From the IMG/VR virus record IMGVR_UViG_3300025129_000005: 64,000 nt of DNA; one strand, given 5' to 3'. Position 1 is the first letter of the stretch; the number at the start of each line of letters is the position of its first letter. Below, piece after piece: positions 1,694 to 47,567 of the stretch. The notes beneath the pieces are model-generated. The model saw only the letters and a list, made by a program, of their open reading frames with translations. It did not search any database and was not told where the DNA came from. Source of the DNA: a virus (lineage: Duplodnaviria > Caudoviricetes). The translations under genes and the position numbers were made by a program.

Positions 1694-2817
1694 ATGTTAT
1701 ATTATAATCCGTTTGCTATAGATAAACTTCTACGAAGGAGGGATGAGGCGTATGGATTATTCCATCTTAATAGAGCCGCCGCGCATAAATTTGATAGAAC
1801 TGGCCTTTTTACCATGTTTGATGTAGGAGATAAAATCAATTTCAAATCAATGTTTGGTCTGCCTGATTTCTCTACACCATATAACAAGAACTTCGAAGAC
1901 ACTGCTATGGCAACGGCACAAAGAATTGTCGAGAACAACGAACCATTTAACCTTTATTGGTCTGGTGGTTTAGATTCAACAACCGTTCTGATATGCCTCC
2001 ATCAGTGGTGTGACCGCATAAAAAACCGAATGAAGGTTATAATGACAGAGGCTTCTATAAGAGATAATAAGTATGCTTATGATACTATAATTAAGCCTAA
2101 TTATGAACACGTGGTCTGTGAGGATTTCGGTGGAGCGCAGAATAATTATTCACTGGATTATATGAATGTGACTGGTGATGCTAGTGAAGCCATTTATGGA
2201 TGGTCTGGTATTCTCCAAAACTTCATGAAGGAACTTGGGGTGAAAGGTTTGTATATAAAGCTCAAAGATATCCCCAAATTAAAGAGCAGATTAAGTCCAG
2301 ATAATTATACAACATTTGAATATTATTTGAAATTGTATGAACTGATCAAGGTGACCCTACCAGCATGTCCTATTGATATTGTTGATATTCAGGATCTTAA
2401 CTGGTGGTTCGTGTTTAATTTCTGCTATCAATATGACGTGTTGAGGTTCATGGTTCCTTATTACAGGAACTATGAAAAGTGTTGGGCGAACATGAACGCT
2501 TTTTTGCTAATGATGACTGGCAGTTATGGATATATAACACATACGAATCTACCATGAAGGGCGTAACCGACTTCAACTATATGAAGAAAGATGAGATTAA
2601 TTTCATAAAGAGACATTATCCGAAGATTGATCTGTCTCATACGTTACCAAGAAAGACAAACGTTCATCTGAAATACCTAGCACCAAAGGACTTCTTACTG
2701 ATAGGTGATGACTATAACATTGTTGATTGTCCTGGCTATCTAGAGACGACAAAAAAGGAAATGATGGAGAATTATAAGAACAAACCACTAGAAGAAGTGC
2801 AAATGTTGTTTGATTGA
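1694..2817 (+). CDS. PP-loop ATP pyrophosphatase (asparagine-synthase-C-like), split by a -1 frameshift at T6 2500-2505
   Basis: YWSGGLDST PP-loop; the C-terminal FFANDDWQLW continues MNA in the -1 frame. Confidence 0.7.
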
Positions 2818-3638
2818 TGAGAACTACTACGCTTGTACTGACAACGGATTGTAACTGGAATTGTAGCTACTGTAACGTGGCAAAGTTCGGTAAATATATG
2901 ACCAGTAGAGAGAAGATTGATCGCCACCTTCCCTATATTATGGAGTTGATAGGAGACTATAACTTCGTTTTAGCGGGGGGTGAGATTGGTCTGGTAGATC
3001 CTGATATCATTTCTAATCTGATGGTATCCATAGGAAAGCCAGTTACAATCAATACTAACGGGTTGTTTATGGAAATGGGGTATCACAATATACCAGAAAT
3101 ACGTAATAATATCGACAAGATATACTACCATGTTAATGATAGACCAAATACTGCCCCGATCTATATCGACAAAGACCTTGATATACTGTATGGTATAGTT
3201 AGTGATAATATTGAGACTATAATAAGTTTTATATCAGCCAACAAAAACCTTGATATCTCGTATATAGGTCTGGATAGTGCTTTCGATGATACACACATGG
3301 ATTACTTCAAGTTATTGCTATTGGCTAGAGAGTTTTTTAATGTGACCGATGATGCTGTACGTCAATTAGAGCATTACTGTTTAAAATACAACCACTTAGG
3401 GAAGTATCGCAGGTACTGCAAGGCAACCAGTTTCACCATTGATCTAGCTAAAGAGGTCATATGTCTCTGTGCTTTTAGGAACAAGCATATTGATATTCCT
3501 CTGACCAGAGACAATTTGAAGAAAGTTATATCGCAGACGAATGTCTTTCAAGGTGATGACAGTTGTGACACATGCACCAGAGTGTGTCTGGATACAAACA
3601 TAGAGGTAAACATTAGAGATATGTTGAGGAGACGATGA
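2814..3638 (+). CDS. Radical SAM protein with C-terminal Cys-rich (SPASM/twitch-like) domain
   Basis: CNWNCSYC, GGEIGL, TN; C-terminal YC...CLC...CDTCTRVC. Confidence 0.9.
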   Translation: MMRTTTLVLTTDCNWNCSYCNVAKFGKYMTSREKIDRHLPYIMELIGDYNFVLAGGEIGLVDPDIISNLMVSIGKPVTINTNGLFMEMGYHNIPEIRNNIDKIYYHVNDRPNTAPIYIDKDLDILYGIVSDNIETIISFISANKNLDISYIGLDSAFDDTHMDYFKLLLLAREFFNVTDDAVRQLEHYCLKYNHLGKYRRYCKATSFTIDLAKEVICLCAFRNKHIDIPLTRDNLKKVISQTNVFQGDDSCDTCTRVCLDTNIEVNIRDMLRRR

Positions 3639-4567
3639 AGAAGACAACCTTTGCTGATTTTAAAAAACAATGGTATTTCAGTTTAACCGAATATTGTAGT
3701 TGGAAGTGTTCTTATTGTGACTTTCCATGTAAAACTGACCCAAAAGTTGCTCCAATTGAATATGTAGAGGAAGTATTTGACCGCATCAAGAGGATCACCA
3801 ATTATGACCAATCCATAGAGTATTGCCTTGAAGGTGGAGAGATTGGGTTGTTTGATCAGGATTATCTCGATAGAGTGTTTAATAGTGGTCTTTCTGAAAC
3901 ATACAACGTTGCTACTAATGGTCTGTTCATGGAGAAAAGTTATCATAAGAGATATTCCGACAAAATCCATTATATTCTATATCACATTGCTCCTGAGATA
4001 TATGACGGGGTGAAGTATAAGGAGTATGATTTTGGTGATATTCTGTGTTACTATACCTTTGTTATAAACAAAAATAACCTACCTATTTTGGATAAGTTTC
4101 TAACGGATAATCTTGATTCTAAACACCGGTTTCTGCCTCATATACTTCAACCAAGAACACCCGGTTTGGATCTGTTGACCTATGATGACTTTATACAAAT
4201 GTATGATATCATTAAGGATAAATCGAATGTGAAACCAGATTTCATTGAGAGAGTGGTGAGGATTATTGAACGGCACAATGATGAACCGTGGTTGGACTCT
4301 CACAGAAAAATTTGTGCCAGTGTGTATACACAACCTATCTTTGATTTACCAAATAAGAGGGTTAACCGATGTTGTATATCAATCACTGGTGATTCAGTTG
4401 ATATTACAGATGATAATTTAGAAAGGTTGTATAAAAATAAAATAATGTTTAGTTCATTGAAAGATTCTGTGTGTGATGGGTGTATTGCTAATTTTTTATG
4501 GCACGATTGGAGACACAGGAGATATATGAAAGAGATTATTAAGATACATAAGGGTTTTAGTTCATGA
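3635..4567 (+). CDS. Radical SAM protein with SPASM/twitch-like domain
   Basis: CSWKCSYC, GGEIGL, ATNG; C-terminal IC...RCC...CDGC. Confidence 0.9.
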   Translation: MKKTTFADFKKQWYFSLTEYCSWKCSYCDFPCKTDPKVAPIEYVEEVFDRIKRITNYDQSIEYCLEGGEIGLFDQDYLDRVFNSGLSETYNVATNGLFMEKSYHKRYSDKIHYILYHIAPEIYDGVKYKEYDFGDILCYYTFVINKNNLPILDKFLTDNLDSKHRFLPHILQPRTPGLDLLTYDDFIQMYDIIKDKSNVKPDFIERVVRIIERHNDEPWLDSHRKICASVYTQPIFDLPNKRVNRCCISITGDSVDITDDNLERLYKNKIMFSSLKDSVCDGCIANFLWHDWRHRRYMKEIIKIHKGFSS

Positions 4568-5520
4568 AAGCTTATGTCGGGATAACAAACAATTGTAATG
4601 CCAAGTGTTTCACCTGTAATAGACAAGTTCTTAAAGGATACAGGCATAATGGTGAAATGACCATAAATGTTATAGACAAGATCCTTGATGCGTCAAGTAC
4701 TATCGCATATATAGGTGAAATGGGAGACTTTATTTTTCACCCCAAAAGTCTTGATATAGCCCGAAGAACAGTAGAGCGTGGGGTTGATATGGATGTGGAT
4801 ACCATAGGGAGCATTCATGGCGAGGATTACTGGACGGTGTTGGGTAAGATATGTAACAAAGAGAACACTGTTATACGTTTCGTGTTGGATGATCTTATCA
4901 CCGATCCACACAGACAGGTGGATACTGAAAAGGCGTTAAAGAACCTACAGACATTCATTGATGCTGGTGGTAACGCCCATGTCAAGACGATTCTATTCAA
5001 TTTCAATCAACACATAATTGAAGATATGGCTGATTATCTCAAGAACATGGGAGTAAATCACTACGAGACGATCAGGTCACGGTTGTATATGGACGAAGGA
5101 CCACTTTCAGCACCAACGGTTAATTATAAGTCATGTCTGGATCTATTAGAGAATGTTCAACGCAGGGCACCAAAGGATTGTATGTGGCACAAGTACGAAA
5201 TGTACTATGTTAATGAGTTAGGAGAGGTTAAGATTTGTTGTCATTTGCCTTTTGAGGGTATACGTAACGCAGATTCCATAGAACCCTTCATGGAACCATA
5301 TGTTGGTATGACTATGTTTGGTGATATAATGGATGTATATGACAGGGGTAGAGAGGACATGAATTTGAACAACGATTGGGTGACAGTAGAGTCGGCTTTG
5401 AACAGTGAATTCAATCAGTACATGTTGAATAACAAACACAAGAACACGATATGTCGATTCAGGTGTAGTGACCAAGAACAGGTGAGAAACCTCATGTTCC
5501 AACACACAAGGATATTCTAA
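4564..5520 (+). CDS. Radical SAM protein with SPASM/twitch-like domain
   Basis: CNAKCFTC, GEMGDFIFHP; C-terminal CMW...GEVKICC...CRFRC. Confidence 0.9.
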   Translation: MKAYVGITNNCNAKCFTCNRQVLKGYRHNGEMTINVIDKILDASSTIAYIGEMGDFIFHPKSLDIARRTVERGVDMDVDTIGSIHGEDYWTVLGKICNKENTVIRFVLDDLITDPHRQVDTEKALKNLQTFIDAGGNAHVKTILFNFNQHIIEDMADYLKNMGVNHYETIRSRLYMDEGPLSAPTVNYKSCLDLLENVQRRAPKDCMWHKYEMYYVNELGEVKICCHLPFEGIRNADSIEPFMEPYVGMTMFGDIMDVYDRGREDMNLNNDWVTVESALNSEFNQYMLNNKHKNTICRFRCSDQEQVRNLMFQHTRIF

Positions 5521-6503
5521 TGTACGAGAATGTTAACATAGGTATAGTTTCATATTGTAACGCTAAATGTTACCTTTGTAACAGACAGACCGTACCAGAA
5601 TTCCCACGTGTCACCATGTCCATAGAAACCTTCCGAAAGGTCATTCCTTATGCAAAAAAGATGTCCTTTATCGGCGGGTTTGGAGATTTCATAAATCACC
5701 CACAAAGCCTTGATTTTGTTAGAGAGATAGGCGACAAACCTTTCATGATAGAAACCAATGCAGGTATTCGTGATGAGAGCTACTGGAAGGAACTTGCATC
5801 TATGGCCAATGATGCCGATCATTATGTACAGTTTTCTGTTGATGAAGTGTTTGAAAGTCAGAACCCTTACCGTATGGTAGACACAAAAATAGTGTTACAT
5901 AACCTCAAGACGTTCATTGACGCCGGTGGATATGCTGTTGTTAAAACTATCAGATTTAATTTTAACGAAGATAAAATACCTATTATGACTGAGTTTTTTA
6001 AGAGCATTGGAGTTAAAGAGTATCACACACAATTGTCGATATATTATCCAGATAAAGGTGATTCCATTTTATCCGCACCACATGTACCGGGTGTTTTTGT
6101 AAATGGAACGTTACCACTTGTTTACAAAATTAACGAAAAGTTCAGCAAATCAGGGGTGAAATGTGGGTGGAAGGAAGGTCGATGGTTGTACATAGTCGAG
6201 AATGGAGAAGTTCACAGGTGTTGTAAATTATCGATATATATCAATGGTATGCAGGATAACGCCCCTGCCCCTATATCGAAGTACACACAGGATGAGTATT
6301 ATGATGATATATCTGAAATTTATTATCGTAACAAGGAATTAATAAACCTTAACACCGATGGTGTTACTATGGAAACTATACAGAATAACGAGTATTTCAG
6401 ATACATTGAAGAGAAGTTTAAGCACGTTAAAAGATGTAAAATATCTTGTGCTTTAAGGTATGATATTGCCAATAGAATGCTAGGATTAAAGAGGATATTT
6501 TGA
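5520..6503 (+). CDS. Radical SAM protein with SPASM/twitch-like domain (paralog of 4564..5520)
   Basis: CNAKCYLC, GGFGDFINHP, NLKTFIDAGG, GEVHRCC. Confidence 0.9.
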   Translation: MYENVNIGIVSYCNAKCYLCNRQTVPEFPRVTMSIETFRKVIPYAKKMSFIGGFGDFINHPQSLDFVREIGDKPFMIETNAGIRDESYWKELASMANDADHYVQFSVDEVFESQNPYRMVDTKIVLHNLKTFIDAGGYAVVKTIRFNFNEDKIPIMTEFFKSIGVKEYHTQLSIYYPDKGDSILSAPHVPGVFVNGTLPLVYKINEKFSKSGVKCGWKEGRWLYIVENGEVHRCCKLSIYINGMQDNAPAPISKYTQDEYYDDISEIYYRNKELINLNTDGVTMETIQNNEYFRYIEEKFKHVKRCKISCALRYDIANRMLGLKRIF

Positions 6504-7375
6504 ACGTATTTTTTGTAGAGTTTCTTGCCACATATAACTGCGACCAGAACTGTTATTACTGTGATATAATAAACAAGGGTATAAACACTTATACAGAAAT
6601 GGATATGGATAAGTTTAAATGGACTATTGATATCCTTGGATCTGAGACGAAGAATCTCATGGTCGAGATTTGTGGTGGCGAGACAGGTCTGATTAGTAAC
6701 GTGGAAGACGTGATAAGGTTTTTGAAGGACCATAAGTCAGTCAAGAAGACTCAGATAATGTCCAACGGTCTTTTACGTGTACAACACCCTGAAATTATTA
6801 AGGAATTTGATTATTACAATGAACATCTTGTCAGGGATATCATAGGAAGGGATGTACAGAAATTCCATGATATAGAATTTTGTAGTGATGATAACGCTAA
6901 AACCGTCATTGTCATGACAGAGAACACAGTAAGATCATTATTAGAGAATGAAGAATATTATAGAGATATTATCGAATCAGAATCATTTTGGTTCAAAATA
7001 TTCATTGAGAGAAGTGTTGATATCTCTACCAATCATTTAGATATGATGAGGGAGTTTTATAATAAATATAATGTGATGTTTTGTGATTTTTATATGAATA
7101 AATTGGAGATGAAGAATGATTCATTTTCTAAAAGTTTGTGTACAAAATATCCATTTTTACCGGTTATAGATATGGAGAATAATGATATAATTCATTGTGC
7201 ATATTATAATTTTACCAATAAAGTGACTAAAGATTTGAACGAAAACAATCTAAGGGATTTGGTTAACAAAAAACTATTTATTACGGAATCACCTGATTAT
7301 TGTTGCTCATGTTATGATTATTATCAAGATCCTCATTTTCTTATAAGAAGGAATAAAAGTAATAAACAATTATGA
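6500..7375 (+). CDS. Radical SAM protein with SPASM/twitch-like domain (paralog of 2814/3635)
   Basis: CDQNCYYC, GGETGL, SNG; C-terminal LC...HC...CCSC. Confidence 0.9.
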   Translation: MNVFFVEFLATYNCDQNCYYCDIINKGINTYTEMDMDKFKWTIDILGSETKNLMVEICGGETGLISNVEDVIRFLKDHKSVKKTQIMSNGLLRVQHPEIIKEFDYYNEHLVRDIIGRDVQKFHDIEFCSDDNAKTVIVMTENTVRSLLENEEYYRDIIESESFWFKIFIERSVDISTNHLDMMREFYNKYNVMFCDFYMNKLEMKNDSFSKSLCTKYPFLPVIDMENNDIIHCAYYNFTNKVTKDLNENNLRDLVNKKLFITESPDYCCSCYDYYQDPHFLIRRNKSNKQL

Positions 7376-32951: not shown

Positions 32952-33029
32952 GACCCATTACTCCACGATGGCAGAGAGAACACGTTTAGACCGTGTACAG
33001 GGAGAGTTCGACACTCGCATGGGCTACCA
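32952..33029 (+). tRNA. tRNA-Leu(TAG), short variable loop
   Basis: ACACG-ttTAGac-CGTGT; CCA. Confidence 0.7.
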
Positions 33030-33037
33030 AAGTTTAA

Positions 33038-33109
33038 GCTCGTCGAAGGTCTGATGACCTAGTATCTCTTACAAAGAGACTGGATGGTTTGATTCCATGG
33101 CGAGTACCA
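33038..33109 (+). tRNA. tRNA-Val(TAC), divergent
   Basis: ctTACaa loop; GCTCGTC/GGCGAGT acceptor; CCA. Confidence 0.65.
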
Positions 33110-33115
33110 GTTAAA

Positions 33116-33191
33116 TCAGGAGTTAAGATAGAGGTAAATCGTGTTGGCTGTGACCCAGCAAACAAGGGTTCGAATTCCTTACTCCTGACCA
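33116..33191 (+). tRNA. tRNA-His(GTG)
   Basis: GTTGG-ctGTGac-CCAGC; CCA. Confidence 0.82.
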
Positions 33192-33194
33192 TAA

Positions 33195-33268
33195 GCCGGA
33201 TTAGTTAAATGGTATAACTTCTGTTTTGTAATCAGAATTTGCGGGTTCGATTCCTGCATCCGGCTCCA
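33195..33268 (+). tRNA. tRNA-Thr(TGT)
   Basis: ttTGTaa loop in TTCTG/CAGAA stem; CCA. Confidence 0.82.
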
Positions 33269-33281
33269 AGTTTAAAGTTTT

Positions 33282-33355
33282 GCGGGTATAGTTAAAAGGT
33301 ATAACTACAGCCTTCCAAGTTGTAATTGTCGGTTCGATTCCGTCTACCCGCTCCA
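33282..33355 (+). tRNA. tRNA-Gly(TCC)
   Basis: ACAGC-ctTCCaa-GTTGT; CCA. Confidence 0.88.
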
Positions 33356-33392
33356 ATACATAAGTTGTCAATATTTTAAATTGAATATAGTG

Positions 33393-33421
33393 TTGACATA
33401 GTTACATAAAGACTGTAGAAT
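33393..33421 (+). promoter_or_regulatory. Sigma70-type promoter within the tRNA array
   Basis: TTGACA-17-TAGAAT with extended TG. Confidence 0.7.
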
Positions 33422-33447
33422 ACTGATTAGTTTGTTTGAGAATTTAA

Positions 33448-33532
33448 GCCCCTTGCCCCGACAACAGACTTCTAATCTGTTCCTTAAAAGTTGGATGGAA
33501 GGTACGAGGTTCGATTCCTCCAAGGGGTTCCA
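33448..33532 (+). tRNA. Atypical tRNA-Arg(TCT): rudimentary D-arm, long extra region
   Basis: GCCCCTT/AAGGGGT acceptor; ACAGA-ctTCTaa-TCTGT; GAGG-TTCGATT-CCTC; CCA. Confidence 0.65.
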
Positions 33533-33545
33533 GAATATTAAATAT

Positions 33546-33620
33546 GCTCCTGTAATTCAATGGTAGAATAGGCGACTTATAATCGCTCTATAGTAGGTTC
33601 GAATCCTCTCAGGAGTACCA
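33546..33620 (+). tRNA. tRNA-Ile(TAT)
   Basis: GGCGA-ctTATaa-TCGCT; full cloverleaf; CCA. Confidence 0.82.
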
Positions 33621-33760
33621 GTTTTATAGAGGAAGTCTGATAGGCGTCATCCCAAACCTCTTTAAAAAAGTCGTGGGTGTCCGTTCCCTAAGAAGGTATG
33701 GGAGGACGAACTTCTCAAGTTTACAAATCGCTGAATATAGTGTATCATGTTTATATGTAT

Positions 33761-33836
33761 AGGGGTGTAGCGCAAAGGCAGAGGCATCAGGTTTAAGCCC
33801 TGATTAGTGGGAGTTCGAATCTCCTCACCCCTACCA
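33761..33836 (+). tRNA. tRNA-Leu(TAA), short variable loop
   Basis: TCAGG-ttTAAgc-CCTGA; CCA. Confidence 0.75.
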
Positions 33837-33849
33837 ATTTTATAGTTAT

Positions 33850-33925
33850 GGGGGCGTAGCCAAGTGGAATGGCAACAGACTTTTAATCTGTATATCGGTG
33901 GGTTCGAATCCCCCCGCCCTCACCA
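33850..33925 (+). tRNA. tRNA-Lys(TTT)
   Basis: ACAGA-ctTTTaa-TCTGT; CCA. Confidence 0.88.
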
Positions 33926-33940
33926 TTAGCGAGGTAATCT

Positions 33941-34295
33941 ATGGATGATAAACTACATACCTTAGAAATAACTGGCGGTGAAACGATAGAATTCAGAGAT
34001 AAATTATCTGGTTTTTTATCAAGAGCCACTCGGAACCTTTGAGCTTACGGATAAAGAAAAATATCTGCACAGTTTGGTTAAAGAGTACCACACCCGCTGC
34101 GAGGAATACGACAGGACGGTATGTACAGACCCGGTAGAGCGAGATGGGATTCTCCCCGCGAATGGTTTTGAGGTACGCCAAATCAACCTAAACGCCATAG
34201 AAGTGCGAAAAAATTTACAAGATCGAGCCTACAGAGAGCGTGGGATCTCGCCCGGCGAGGTGAGCAGAGCCATTTCGGACTACAGAGCCAGATAA
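33941..34295 (+). CDS. Hypothetical protein, apparently frameshifted at T6 34012-34017
   Basis: SD GAGGT and ATG 33941; the downstream frame is open from 33990 without its own ATG; removing one T fuses the two. Confidence 0.45.
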
Positions 34296-34356
34296 CCGGG
34301 TTGTCGTAGGTGAACCAACCATTAAAAAAGAAGCAAAAAAATGTTTAAGTTTTATG

Positions 34357-34385
34357 TTTACATACGGTAAACAAACTGGTATAGT
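34357..34385 (+). promoter_or_regulatory. Sigma70-type promoter of the giant ncRNA
   Basis: TTTACA-17-TATAGT. Confidence 0.6.
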
Positions 34386-34391
34386 GGTTAA

Positions 34392-35735
34392 GTAGTCACA
34401 ATCACCCATCACAGATAACCAAGAGAGATACTTGGTGTCCAGAGATAATATCAACGGGGTAAGGGATTGTGTCAAGTTCTTTGACAATTGAAAGTAAAAA
34501 CGGTTGACGGAATAATGGTTGCATGACCATAACGTACCCTGATAGGGGTTGAAATACCCAAAAGCCCGATGCGGTATATCTAAAGGGAGTGGTTAGTAAC
34601 GTCATCCTGAACAATGAACAGAACAGACCGAGGTAACGTAACCTAGTGTGGTCGCAATAAGGTCAAGGTTCTGGTTCTCCTGCTGAAATCCACACGATAG
34701 CCTATTATAGAATCAATGCCAGTGGGAGTTGGGGGTAAGGAAATTCCCCTCATCCAATGAACCCTTCGGGGGAGGTAAACAATAGGACTTGCTACCCTAT
34801 TGGGATGTGTCAGAATGTTTGGGTTGTCGAGAAATCTTGGATGATTGATGTTGTCATTCACCGTTTTTACTTTCAATTGCTAAAGAGCAATAAGTTCTTT
34901 CAAAATCAGAATATGGTCGCTTGAGGTCATAGAAATAAACCACGGTAACGTGGGGAAAGGGATGTACTTCTATCAGTCTCCCGCCCTATAAAAGGGATAA
35001 TCAAGCAAGCCTCGTCTTCACCCGTAATGGGTGAGTTCATCTTACCAAGGGATGGACTTGAGTAAGGACGGTAGAGTAGGACAAATAAACCAATGGGTAA
35101 CTCTGGTTGGTTTATCTTTCGGGTGGTACCGAATTACTGCATACCAAATCTACTTAATTACAAAAGATAAGGGGTAATCAACTCAGTCCGAGAGTAGTGT
35201 CAAGGGCGGTTGGTAGTTCGATAGGGAACGGATACCTACGGTAGTAGGTGGACGGAATCTTGACAAACCATTGAGTACCAATACAAACGGGAAAGATACT
35301 AGGTGTGTGGTATTTCGTAGTCGCAAGATTATGAATCCACAGGGGTCACACATCTTCGATAGTTAATTGACAGCCCTTGAAAGCTGTTGATTATTGGTTC
35401 AAATCCAATATTAATACTCAAACGCAAAGTTGACCCCGCTGTATGATGAAAGTGGCTTAATCCCCAACATGTTATGTGAATTGGGGTACTCAAAACCCGC
35501 AAGGTGGAGAGTATTGATAGGGAGTCGCACTTAGGGTGTTCGCTACACACTAGGGTAGACAAAGTATTGAATAGTCATACAGGACAGTGTTAAAGCAGAC
35601 ACTTTAATAATGCAGTCACGTTGGGATACATGAATGAGTTTCATGTGGACACGTGAGGAACCAAAGGGAATAAGTCCCCTACGGATAATCTCACAAAAGT
35701 CTTGACAACGAAGGTCTTAGTCTCAAACCTTCATA
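34392..35735 (+). ncRNA. GOLLD-like giant structured ncRNA (~1.35 kb)
   Basis: No credible ORF; GC-richer; dense hairpins with GNRA/UUCG-type loops (CGCAAG, CTTCGG, GTAAC); 19-bp long-range helix; located in a phage tRNA array. The GOLLD assignment rests on recalled 3' motifs and is not computed. Confidence 0.55.
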
Positions 35736-35829
35736 CTTTTTAAAAAAAAGTATACAATGATTTACAAAGTAAATAATAAGATACACTTTTCCTGATATCT
35801 CTAAGAGGTATGAGGAAAAGTGTATATTT

Positions 35830-35913
35830 GGCGGGTAGCGTCAAGGTGACAAAAGTGGCTTGAACCCACTGCCACGGTAAAACGTGAGAGTTCGATTCTT
35901 TTACCCGCCTCCA
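35830..35913 (+). tRNA. tRNA-Ser(TGA)
   Basis: AGTGG-ctTGAac-CCACT; long variable arm; CCA. Confidence 0.82.
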
Positions 35914-35918
35914 TTCAC

Positions 35919-36008
35919 GGAAAGCTAATCAGTAAGGTACTGACACCACCTGCTAAGTGGCTGGTTCGTGGTAACACGGATGGATTTCGAATATCCAGCT
36001 TTCCTCCA
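35919..36008 (+). tRNA. tRNA-Ser(GCT)
   Basis: CCAC-ctGCTaa-GTGG; long variable arm; CCA. Confidence 0.8.
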
Positions 36009-36026
36009 TTAAACATAAGGACTCTT

Positions 36027-46889: not shown

Positions 46890-47567
46890 ATGGATATCTT
46901 TGACTATGAACATACAGGTATAATTTACAGGGTCACTAACTTGACCAATGGTAAACTATATGTGGGTCAGACCACCAGACCACTACGCCAGAGGTATAGT
47001 CAACATAGAAGGTTTAAGAATGGCACGTTGTATCCTGTCATACAGAAGTATTCAGACGAAGAGTTGTTGTGGGAAATAGTTTGTGAGTGTTCTAATATTG
47101 ATGACCTGAATTATTGTGAGGATTTTATAATAAGACGATATGTGTCTGATGGATATACCTTATACAATAGAACCGTTGGTGGTGGTCTTAATGCAGAACA
47201 TACCGATGAGGTTAAAAAGAGGATAAGTGATTCGTTGAAGGGTAGGTTTACTGGTGAAGACAATTCCATGTATGGATGTATAGGTGCCTATCATGGAAAA
47301 TCTCTATCAGAAGAACATAGAAGGAAGATGAGTGAATCCCATAAGGGTAAACCATTAACCAATGAACACAGAGCATTGATAAGTGATGGTATGAAATATT
47401 CGTATTCTGTTTACTTTGATGATGGAAGTGTGAGAGAATACATAAATGCCGACCAGAGGGATATTTGTAAAGAAATTGGACTTGGTTCAGCGGTAACGTT
47501 CCGTTCCTTTTTTGGTGACAGAAAACCCTTTAAAGGTATAGTAAAGATAGAAAAAATGAAATTGTGA
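46890..47567 (+). mobile_element. Free-standing GIY-YIG homing endonuclease with NUMOD3 repeats
   Basis: GIIYRVTNLTNGKLYVGQT; YN...GG; SEEHRRKMSESHKGK; own late promoter at 46877. Confidence 0.85.

Follow-up and report, generated by a model that had tools for sequence, protein, structure and literature searches.

A probable stable-RNA operon with GOLLD and a companion structured RNA in a T4-like aquifer phage

What is encoded by a gene-free stretch of about 1.35 kb inside the transfer RNA (tRNA) array of an uncultured phage (IMG/VR record IMGVR_UViG_3300025129_000005)? An initial annotation of this DNA (64,000 nt, referred to here as the window) had interpreted positions 34357-35755 as one GOLLD-like RNA with its own promoter, either much longer than typical for GOLLD or a new giant RNA class. 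Every sequence feature listed there is present, including the TTTACA-17-TATAGT promoter, the ~1.35 kb without a credible open reading frame (ORF; on both strands of 34296-36026 none exceeds 90 amino acids (aa) and none is conserved) and the 3' AAGGT..ACCTT hairpin followed by an A/T palindrome (35733-35753). We nevertheless consider it likely that the locus is a stable-RNA operon of a T4-like aquifer phage with the layout of a ribosomal RNA (rRNA) operon, which makes two RNAs: a GOLLD of normal size and a second structured RNA upstream of it, termed X. The GOLLD adds a new member to a known family; what is novel here is the operon design, together with the companion RNA X.

GOLLD and the adjoining RNA X

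Relatives of the locus were traced via the neighbouring DUF6915 and ThyX proteins, and 118 other IMG/VR GOLLD loci were collected with a degenerate pattern on the GOLLD 3' domain. Individual related loci are given as L numbers. The main features in the window are:

34357-34385, + strand: sigma-70-type promoter TTTACA-17-TATAGT, with TG before the -10 hexamer (promoter scan 10/12)
34476-34487, + strand: boxA-like element 1, GTTCTTTGACAA (motif search; kept in L001, weakly in L155)
34478-34504, + strand: 5' arm of a 27-bp long-range stem (inverted repeat, 93% complementary, 355 nt between the arms)
34505-34859, + strand: X RNA, an unclassified structured RNA of ~355 nt (conservation, covariation, RNA contigs)
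34860-34886, + strand: 3' arm of the long-range stem, pairing with 34478-34504
34894-34905, + strand: boxA-like element 2, GTTCTTTCAAAA (motif search), directly 5' of GOLLD
34910-35299, + strand: GOLLD 5' domain (match of covariance model R1 at 34910-35024, 29.9 bits, E 3.8e-6, over its first ~115 nt)
35300-35729, + strand: GOLLD 3' domain (Rfam RF02032, model positions 1-416 of 416)

A search with the Rfam GOLLD covariance model RF02032 confirmed the GOLLD assignment (177.2 bits at 35300-35729 versus a gathering score of 150). The AAGGT (35711-35715) / ACCTT (35727-35731) hairpin corresponds to the final helix of this model. With its 416 positions, RF02032 describes only the conserved 3' domain (P14-P27), so that a match limited to the last 430 nt is expected. 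Full-length published GOLLDs measure 700 nt (S. agalactiae, PDB 9L0R) and 833 nt (env-38, PDB 9MEE) (PMC12990946; for env-38 also PMC12286853), the 5' region of env-38 comprising residues 1-420.

The 5' start of GOLLD was located with the covariance model R1, built from an alignment (A3) of the first ~170 nt after the boxA motif in 27 distinct loci. A covariance model was chosen because a profile of full GOLLDs that uses sequence alone hardly detects the window. Besides the window, R1 matched L001 (8267-8431) and L016 (722-837), each time just after the second boxA and nowhere else, which places the beginning of the GOLLD 5' domain at ~34910. The position of the boxA motif agrees with this start: it lies 806 nt upstream of the GOLLD 3' landmark in the window (boxA 2) and 821 nt upstream in L001 (GTTCTTTAAAAA), and a single GTTCTTTGAAAA motif is found 821-899 nt upstream in 37 of the 118 IMG/VR loci (27 distinct sequences). 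A further boxA copy ~1,230 nt upstream of the landmark occurs only in the window (GTTCTTTGACAA) and in L001. The resulting GOLLD span of 34910-35729 is 820 nt long, and with about 800-825 nt this GOLLD is of ordinary size. GOLLD identity between L001 and the window amounts to 75.8% in the 5' domain and 81.6% in the 3' domain. A stem enclosing GOLLD itself was not found.

The remaining ~450 nt of the stretch contain X, a distinct, strongly constrained and unclassified structured RNA that is enclosed by the long-range stem. In the window, L001 and L155, the three sequences in which both stem arms are present, the arms are complementary, and changes in one arm are matched at the corresponding positions of the other; the perfect core of the stem measures 16 bp in L001, and the stem of L155 26 bp. 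A pairwise alignment of the window with L001 (A1) showed that conservation starts exactly at the first boxA and that X, with 91.8% identity, is the best conserved part of the locus. From an alignment of X from the window, L001, L016 and L155 (A5), RNAalifold predicted a fold of 99 pairs in 16 helices, in which 98.7% of the cells are paired. Compensatory changes were found in 17 of the 99 pairs, compared with 1-2 when the partners were slid by 1-3 columns, and none of 500 shuffles matched the observed pairing values; loops and junctions are invariant. Four related sequences give low statistical power for covariation, although the contrast with the slid controls is still large. We count the conserved fold of X as established.

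A search of Rfam 15 with 34470-34900 alone (E<=10) gave no credible match for X; the best hit was a nematode snoRNA model with 20 bits versus a gathering score of 70. Two other origins were considered for X and rejected: it shows no similarity to the GOLLD 5' domain of which it might be a duplicate (z = -0.15), and as an rRNA mimic it shares only chance words with the E. coli rrnH operon. The sole + strand ATG ORF within X (34757-34924) has lost its ATG and gained 2-nt gaps in L016.

X and GOLLD were also found as RNA. The stretch is present in six metatranscriptomic runs, and contigs of four of these (three aquifer runs from 2020 and one groundwater run from 2017, each with its own study code) were placed on 33000-37500:

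Run X19: X 34508-34836, word depth 399; GOLLD 34936-35713, word depth 196
Run X20: X 34508-34823, word depth 359; GOLLD 34926-35695, word depth 272
Run X21: X 34508-34868, word depth 99; GOLLD 34924-35582, word depth 76
Run X23: X 34509-34722, word depth 32; GOLLD 34933-35083 and 35147-35297, word depths 16 and 15

X and GOLLD accumulate separately, on separate contigs in all four runs, and both are abundant in these groundwater RNA samples. The GOLLD contigs start at 34924-34936 and run unbroken across the domain border at 35300. Contig cover is absent in the four runs from the leader (34386-34491), the spacer (34869-34923) and the flanks that hold the neighbouring genes (33302-34358 and 35718-36774); the tRNA genes are likewise uncovered, except for a short cross-match from another organism. 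DNA carry-over cannot account for the cover of X and GOLLD, as these runs show none on the flanks. The data are evidence that GOLLD ranks among the most abundant phage RNAs of aquifer metatranscriptomes.

Comparison of the relatives revealed X upstream of GOLLD, downstream of it or missing:

Window, L001 and L016: X upstream of GOLLD
L155 (ThyX 87%): X (76% identical) downstream, beginning ~5 nt past the final GOLLD hairpin and enclosed by a 26-bp stem of its own
L152 (ThyX 84%): tRNA, TTTACA-17-TATAGT, GATCTTTGAAAA and GOLLD, without X
L158 (ThyX 67%): TTGACA-17-TATTCT, small hairpin, GTTCTTTTACAA, GOLLD (152 bits) and GC-rich terminator, without X
L154 and L157 (ThyX 65% and 71%): GOLLD not found in the fetched stretch

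X is therefore a detachable module. Wherever X was found, the stem is kept and GOLLD adjoins, and the stem arms of L155 differ from those of the window at matching positions. Of the initial annotation, the GOLLD identity thus stands, while the extra length belongs to X: a GOLLD much longer than typical is contradicted by the R1 start at ~34910, by the boxA at 806 nt and by the GOLLD contigs starting at 34924-34936, and a new giant RNA class gives way to an ordinary GOLLD plus a separate RNA that follows GOLLD in L155 and is absent from L152 and L158. The case also holds a warning for annotation, as the Rfam GOLLD model describes the 3' half only and gene-free DNA upstream of a match is not necessarily GOLLD.

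Searches for further copies of X gave little. R2, a model of the X core, detected nothing credible in the 118 IMG/VR GOLLD loci or in L152, L154 and L157-L159 (best match 17.7 bits over 39 nt), and nhmmer searches of the 118 loci with X or with the GOLLD 5' domain detected nothing. An X 17-mer was absent from IMG/VR and an X 20-mer from the GTDB genomes. The 17-mer had 26 matches in JGI metagenomes, of which L016 alone is genuine; its occurrence in a group of marine contigs is due to chance. No other module enclosed by a long stem was found near GOLLD in the 118 loci besides those of the window and L001. L016 is a public metagenome contig of 1,216 nt whose positions 1-55 repeat a piece of the GOLLD 3' domain, with 96% identity to window 35439-35493; the 55-nt repeat sits right after the GOLLD 3' end and is probably due to a chimeric assembly of two strains.

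A layout resembling an rRNA operon

The promoter hexamers (TTTACA at 34357-34362, TATAGT at 34380-34385) form the best sigma-70-like site of the region. The same TTTACA-17-TATAGT arrangement recurs in L001, directly 5' of the conserved block and its boxA, and in L152, directly 5' of boxA and GOLLD, and is thus more than a chance match to the consensus. The promoter scan detected no promoter-like site between 34517 and 35366. The gap between stem and GOLLD is 23 nt in the window, nearly all of it boxA, and only ~5 nt separate GOLLD from X in L155. As this leaves neither room nor a site for a promoter between them, X and GOLLD are probably made as a single primary transcript and separated later.

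The boxA-like motif was found three times in the window, versus 0.16 matches expected. Element 1 and the E. coli rrnH leader boxA (TGCTCTTTAACAATT) agree in 12 of 15 bases. The third match (GTTCTTTCACAA, 43361-43372) lies inside an ORF (43006-43506) and is probably due to chance.

Bacterial rRNA operons carry a leader boxA for NusB/NusE-dependent antitermination, and their 16S and 23S rRNAs are enclosed by stems that RNase III processes. The phage locus follows the same order, with a promoter, a boxA, a stem-enclosed stable RNA, a second boxA, the next stable RNA and distal tRNAs. The likeness extends to the rrnH-like boxA 1 and to the 27-bp duplex kept by compensatory changes. It differs in that its products are not rRNAs, no stem was found around GOLLD and the ends seen inside the X stem do not show RNase III geometry; Nus binding and RNase III cutting at the phage locus are presumed by analogy.

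Following this comparison, we propose that the promoter at 34357-34385 would start one untranslated primary transcript. The boxA elements may recruit the host Nus antitermination complex, which would allow the long untranslated RNA to be completed. The 27-bp duplex could then be cut by a double-strand-specific RNase of the RNase III type, and exonucleolytic trimming would generate the main X 5' end at 34508. X and GOLLD would thereby be freed as separate stable RNAs, while leader and spacer would be degraded. GOLLD (~34910 to 35730) would, by homology, presumably assemble into the RNA-only cage known for the family, and X would travel with GOLLD as a movable cassette.

GOLLD forms a 14-mer RNA cage that is larger than the ribosome, and to our knowledge no function of GOLLD has become known since 2009. 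Our best guess is that X and GOLLD most likely act jointly, X being a cargo or a partner of the cage. This suggestion follows from the tight linkage of X to GOLLD, its stronger conservation and its comparable abundance. The series of loci with X before GOLLD, after it or missing makes X a defined candidate partner or cargo, and the locus as a whole suggests how GOLLD may be made, namely with boxA antitermination and a processing stem in the manner of rRNA.

Several points weigh against this reading. The function assigned to the boxA elements is read from their sequence likeness and position. The RNA evidence consists of assembled contigs rather than raw reads, and contig ends are weak evidence for RNA ends; likewise, the uncovered leader and spacer are a weak hint and no proof of cleavage. 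The only pair of ends seen inside the stem (34492 and 34868, described below) leaves a 4-nt 5' overhang. In the data reached, X is confined to four sequences from one phage clade. A conserved, covarying base pairing between X and GOLLD was not found; seven 8-mers with which the two could pair recur in L001, but each is either part of a stem or invariant, and they are hence uninformative. The proposed functional link between X and GOLLD is drawn from their adjacency.

Compared with known GOLLDs, the window GOLLD shows the expected 3' domain above the gathering score, a 5' start as in 27 other phage GOLLDs and a length of ~800-825 nt; it is encoded within the tRNA array of a phage, and its variable linker contains a tRNA-like module. 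Unlike known GOLLDs, it has a second structured RNA in its transcription unit. Its identity to even the nearest relatives is only 76-82%, and its phage is a T4-like jumbo phage from an aquifer.

The T4 tRNA cluster also encodes stable RNAs of unknown function, species 1 and 2 (rnaC and rnaD; ~120-140 nt). Like these, X and GOLLD are non-tRNA stable RNAs that would be co-transcribed with T4-type tRNA genes and released by processing. X differs from species 1 and 2 in its length of ~355 nt, its unrelated sequence, its enclosing stem and its link to GOLLD.

An apparent X circle and alternative explanations

In run X21 the X contig measures 407 nt (377 + 30) and joins 34868 back to 34492, which in an assembly graph of this kind marks a closed cycle, here of 377 nt, and is positive evidence, unlike the gaps in cover; 30 equals k-1 only if Logan assembles with k = 31, as we assumed. 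The RNA population of this run thus contains X molecules whose 3' end runs into their own 5' end and not into the spacer. The junction lies inside the stem, where 34492 pairs with 34872 and 34868 with 34496, and a 9-bp stem remains. RNase III cuts leave a 2-nt 3' overhang, and the 4-nt 5' overhang seen here therefore points to subsequent trimming or to another enzyme. Most X contigs begin at 34508, past the stem. The circle was found in one contig of one run and is absent from X19 and X20, the runs with the deepest X contigs.

That the ends are ligated in vivo while held by the 9-bp stem is possible, though doubtful; the circle may equally be a ligation product of library preparation or a rare side product. 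Neither an RNA ligase nor RtcB was detected among the 33 window ORFs scanned with Pfam, and a tblastn search of the 64-kb window with the Rnl2 of L157 revealed no homologue. The latter is a T4 Rnl2-type RNA ligase encoded at L157 54-1001, directly upstream of the tRNA array, and bears on whether such phages could join RNA ends.

In archaeal pre-rRNA, bulge-helix-bulge (BHB) cleavage in the processing stem is followed by ligation to circular pre-16S and pre-23S RNA. The X circle resembles these in the position of its junction inside a long enclosing stem and in the 4-nt 5' stagger that BHB cleavage also gives. It differs from them in that the X stem is fully paired, without bulges, and the circle comes from one contig of one run; moreover, as the phage is T4-like, its host is presumably bacterial. 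A circular X, if real, would be unusual for a phage. The more far-reaching proposal that X is a new class of phage RNA, excised at the stem, joined into a 377-nt circle in vivo and serving as cargo or partner of GOLLD, is in our view unlikely. If true, it would make X the first circular, non-intron stable RNA of a bacteriophage, recalling the archaeal pre-rRNA circles.

A different explanation would be that X is a non-functional spacer or a mobile element similar to a miniature inverted-repeat transposable element beside GOLLD, which is simply cut from the transcript. The 27-bp inverted repeats flanking X, the boxA-like direct repeats of 15 nt on both sides (34474-34488 and 34892-34906) and its presence, absence or altered position among close relatives of a single clade would all suit such an element. 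A dispensable sequence, however, should hardly be conserved beyond GOLLD itself, with 17 covarying internal pairs and invariant loops and junctions, nor reach word depths equal to or higher than those of GOLLD in four libraries in which leader and spacer are uncovered. Mobility of the cassette is also compatible with an RNA function, and we regard a functionless X as quite unlikely.

It is very unlikely that the whole 1.35 kb is one mature giant GOLLD whose variable 5' region is enlarged by a stem-closed domain. The single promoter and the lack of an ORF fit this idea, as does the probable single primary transcript of X and GOLLD, and GOLLD 5' regions are known to vary (PMC12286853). It is largely refuted by L155, where X follows the GOLLD 3' end, by L152 and L158, which have a full GOLLD without X, by the canonical 5' start at 34910 with a boxA at the canonical distance between X and GOLLD, and by the separate contigs of the four runs, including one circular X contig.

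Least credible of all is a self-splicing or self-circularising group I-type intron ribozyme with the stem arms as exons and the circle as excised intron: T4-like phages do carry group I introns, the window holds a GIY-YIG/NUMOD3 gene and one RNA contig is an exact 377-nt circle, but X has no Rfam intron or ribozyme match (including RF00028) even at E<=10 on X alone, the 3' nucleotide of the circle is U or A and not the terminal G of group I introns, the flanks form a perfect duplex instead of a P1/P10 arrangement, and no contig joins 34491 to 34869 as a spliced product would require.

Further features of the locus and its surroundings

The smaller features of the locus are:

34418-34436, + strand: small leader hairpin ACCAAG-AGAGATA-CTTGGT (from the sequence), inside a leader stretch of ~80 nt that is missing from L001
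35357-35417, + strand: degenerate tRNA-like module in the variable GOLLD linker (Rfam tRNA 21.6 bits, below the gathering score of 29)
35733-35753, no strand assigned: A/T-rich palindrome ATACTTTTT / AAAAAGTAT after GOLLD, no convincing terminator
35830-36008, + strand: two tRNA-Ser genes (ARAGORN) downstream of GOLLD, no RNA contig cover

The leader stretch without a counterpart in L001 comprises ~80 bases (34392-34472). L158 has a GAACG-GAAA-CGTTC hairpin at the corresponding position 5' of its boxA, and the leader hairpin may have a role. The tRNA-like module scores higher at the same linker place in L001 (33.7 bits) and L152 (31.3 bits), and tRNAs within the GOLLD linker are already known (PMC12286853, PMC12990946). 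The palindrome was not called by the terminator scan; L158 has a proper GC hairpin with a T-run in its place.

The two tRNA-Ser genes are possibly distal members of the X/GOLLD stable-RNA unit. Between the GOLLD end and these genes lies a perfect 13-bp inverted repeat (ATACACTTTTCCT / AGGAAAAGTGTAT; 35781-35825) with a 19-nt loop, which ends 5 nt 5' of the tRNA and may be a processing or termination signal. Rfam gave a weak, meaningless U5 match on the minus strand at this repeat.

The T4-like nature of the phage is seen from the Pfam matches of window ORFs: gp46/gp47-like proteins, a UvsX/RecA-like protein, gp32, T4 RNase H, ThyX, ribonucleotide reductase and an ATPase resembling ClpB. DNA identical to the window is present in aquifer metagenomes. 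BLAST searches of GenBank phages with the region, and with 14 kb around it, revealed no match, and the neighbouring proteins had no relatives in IMG/VR.

ARAGORN detected 21 tRNA genes in the window, and a tmRNA gene was not found there by Rfam or ARAGORN. In three relatives a tmRNA gene lies a few kb downstream of ThyX (L155 5916-6262; L154 11397-11754; L159 6379-6704). Just downstream of the GOLLD/X unit, L001 (9146-9292), L158 (4600-4761) and L155 (726-896; all minus strand) have an opposite-strand gene call of 48-56 aa, for which the window contains no counterpart of that size. The homing-endonuclease-like gene with GIY-YIG and NUMOD3 domains is located at 46890-47567 of the window, and L159 and L155 carry GIY-YIG or HNH genes elsewhere near the same gene block. 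At 2814-7375 of the window, three of four consecutive ORFs (2814-3638, 5520-6503 and 6500-7375) resemble radical-SAM proteins weakly, with Pfam scores under the cut-off.

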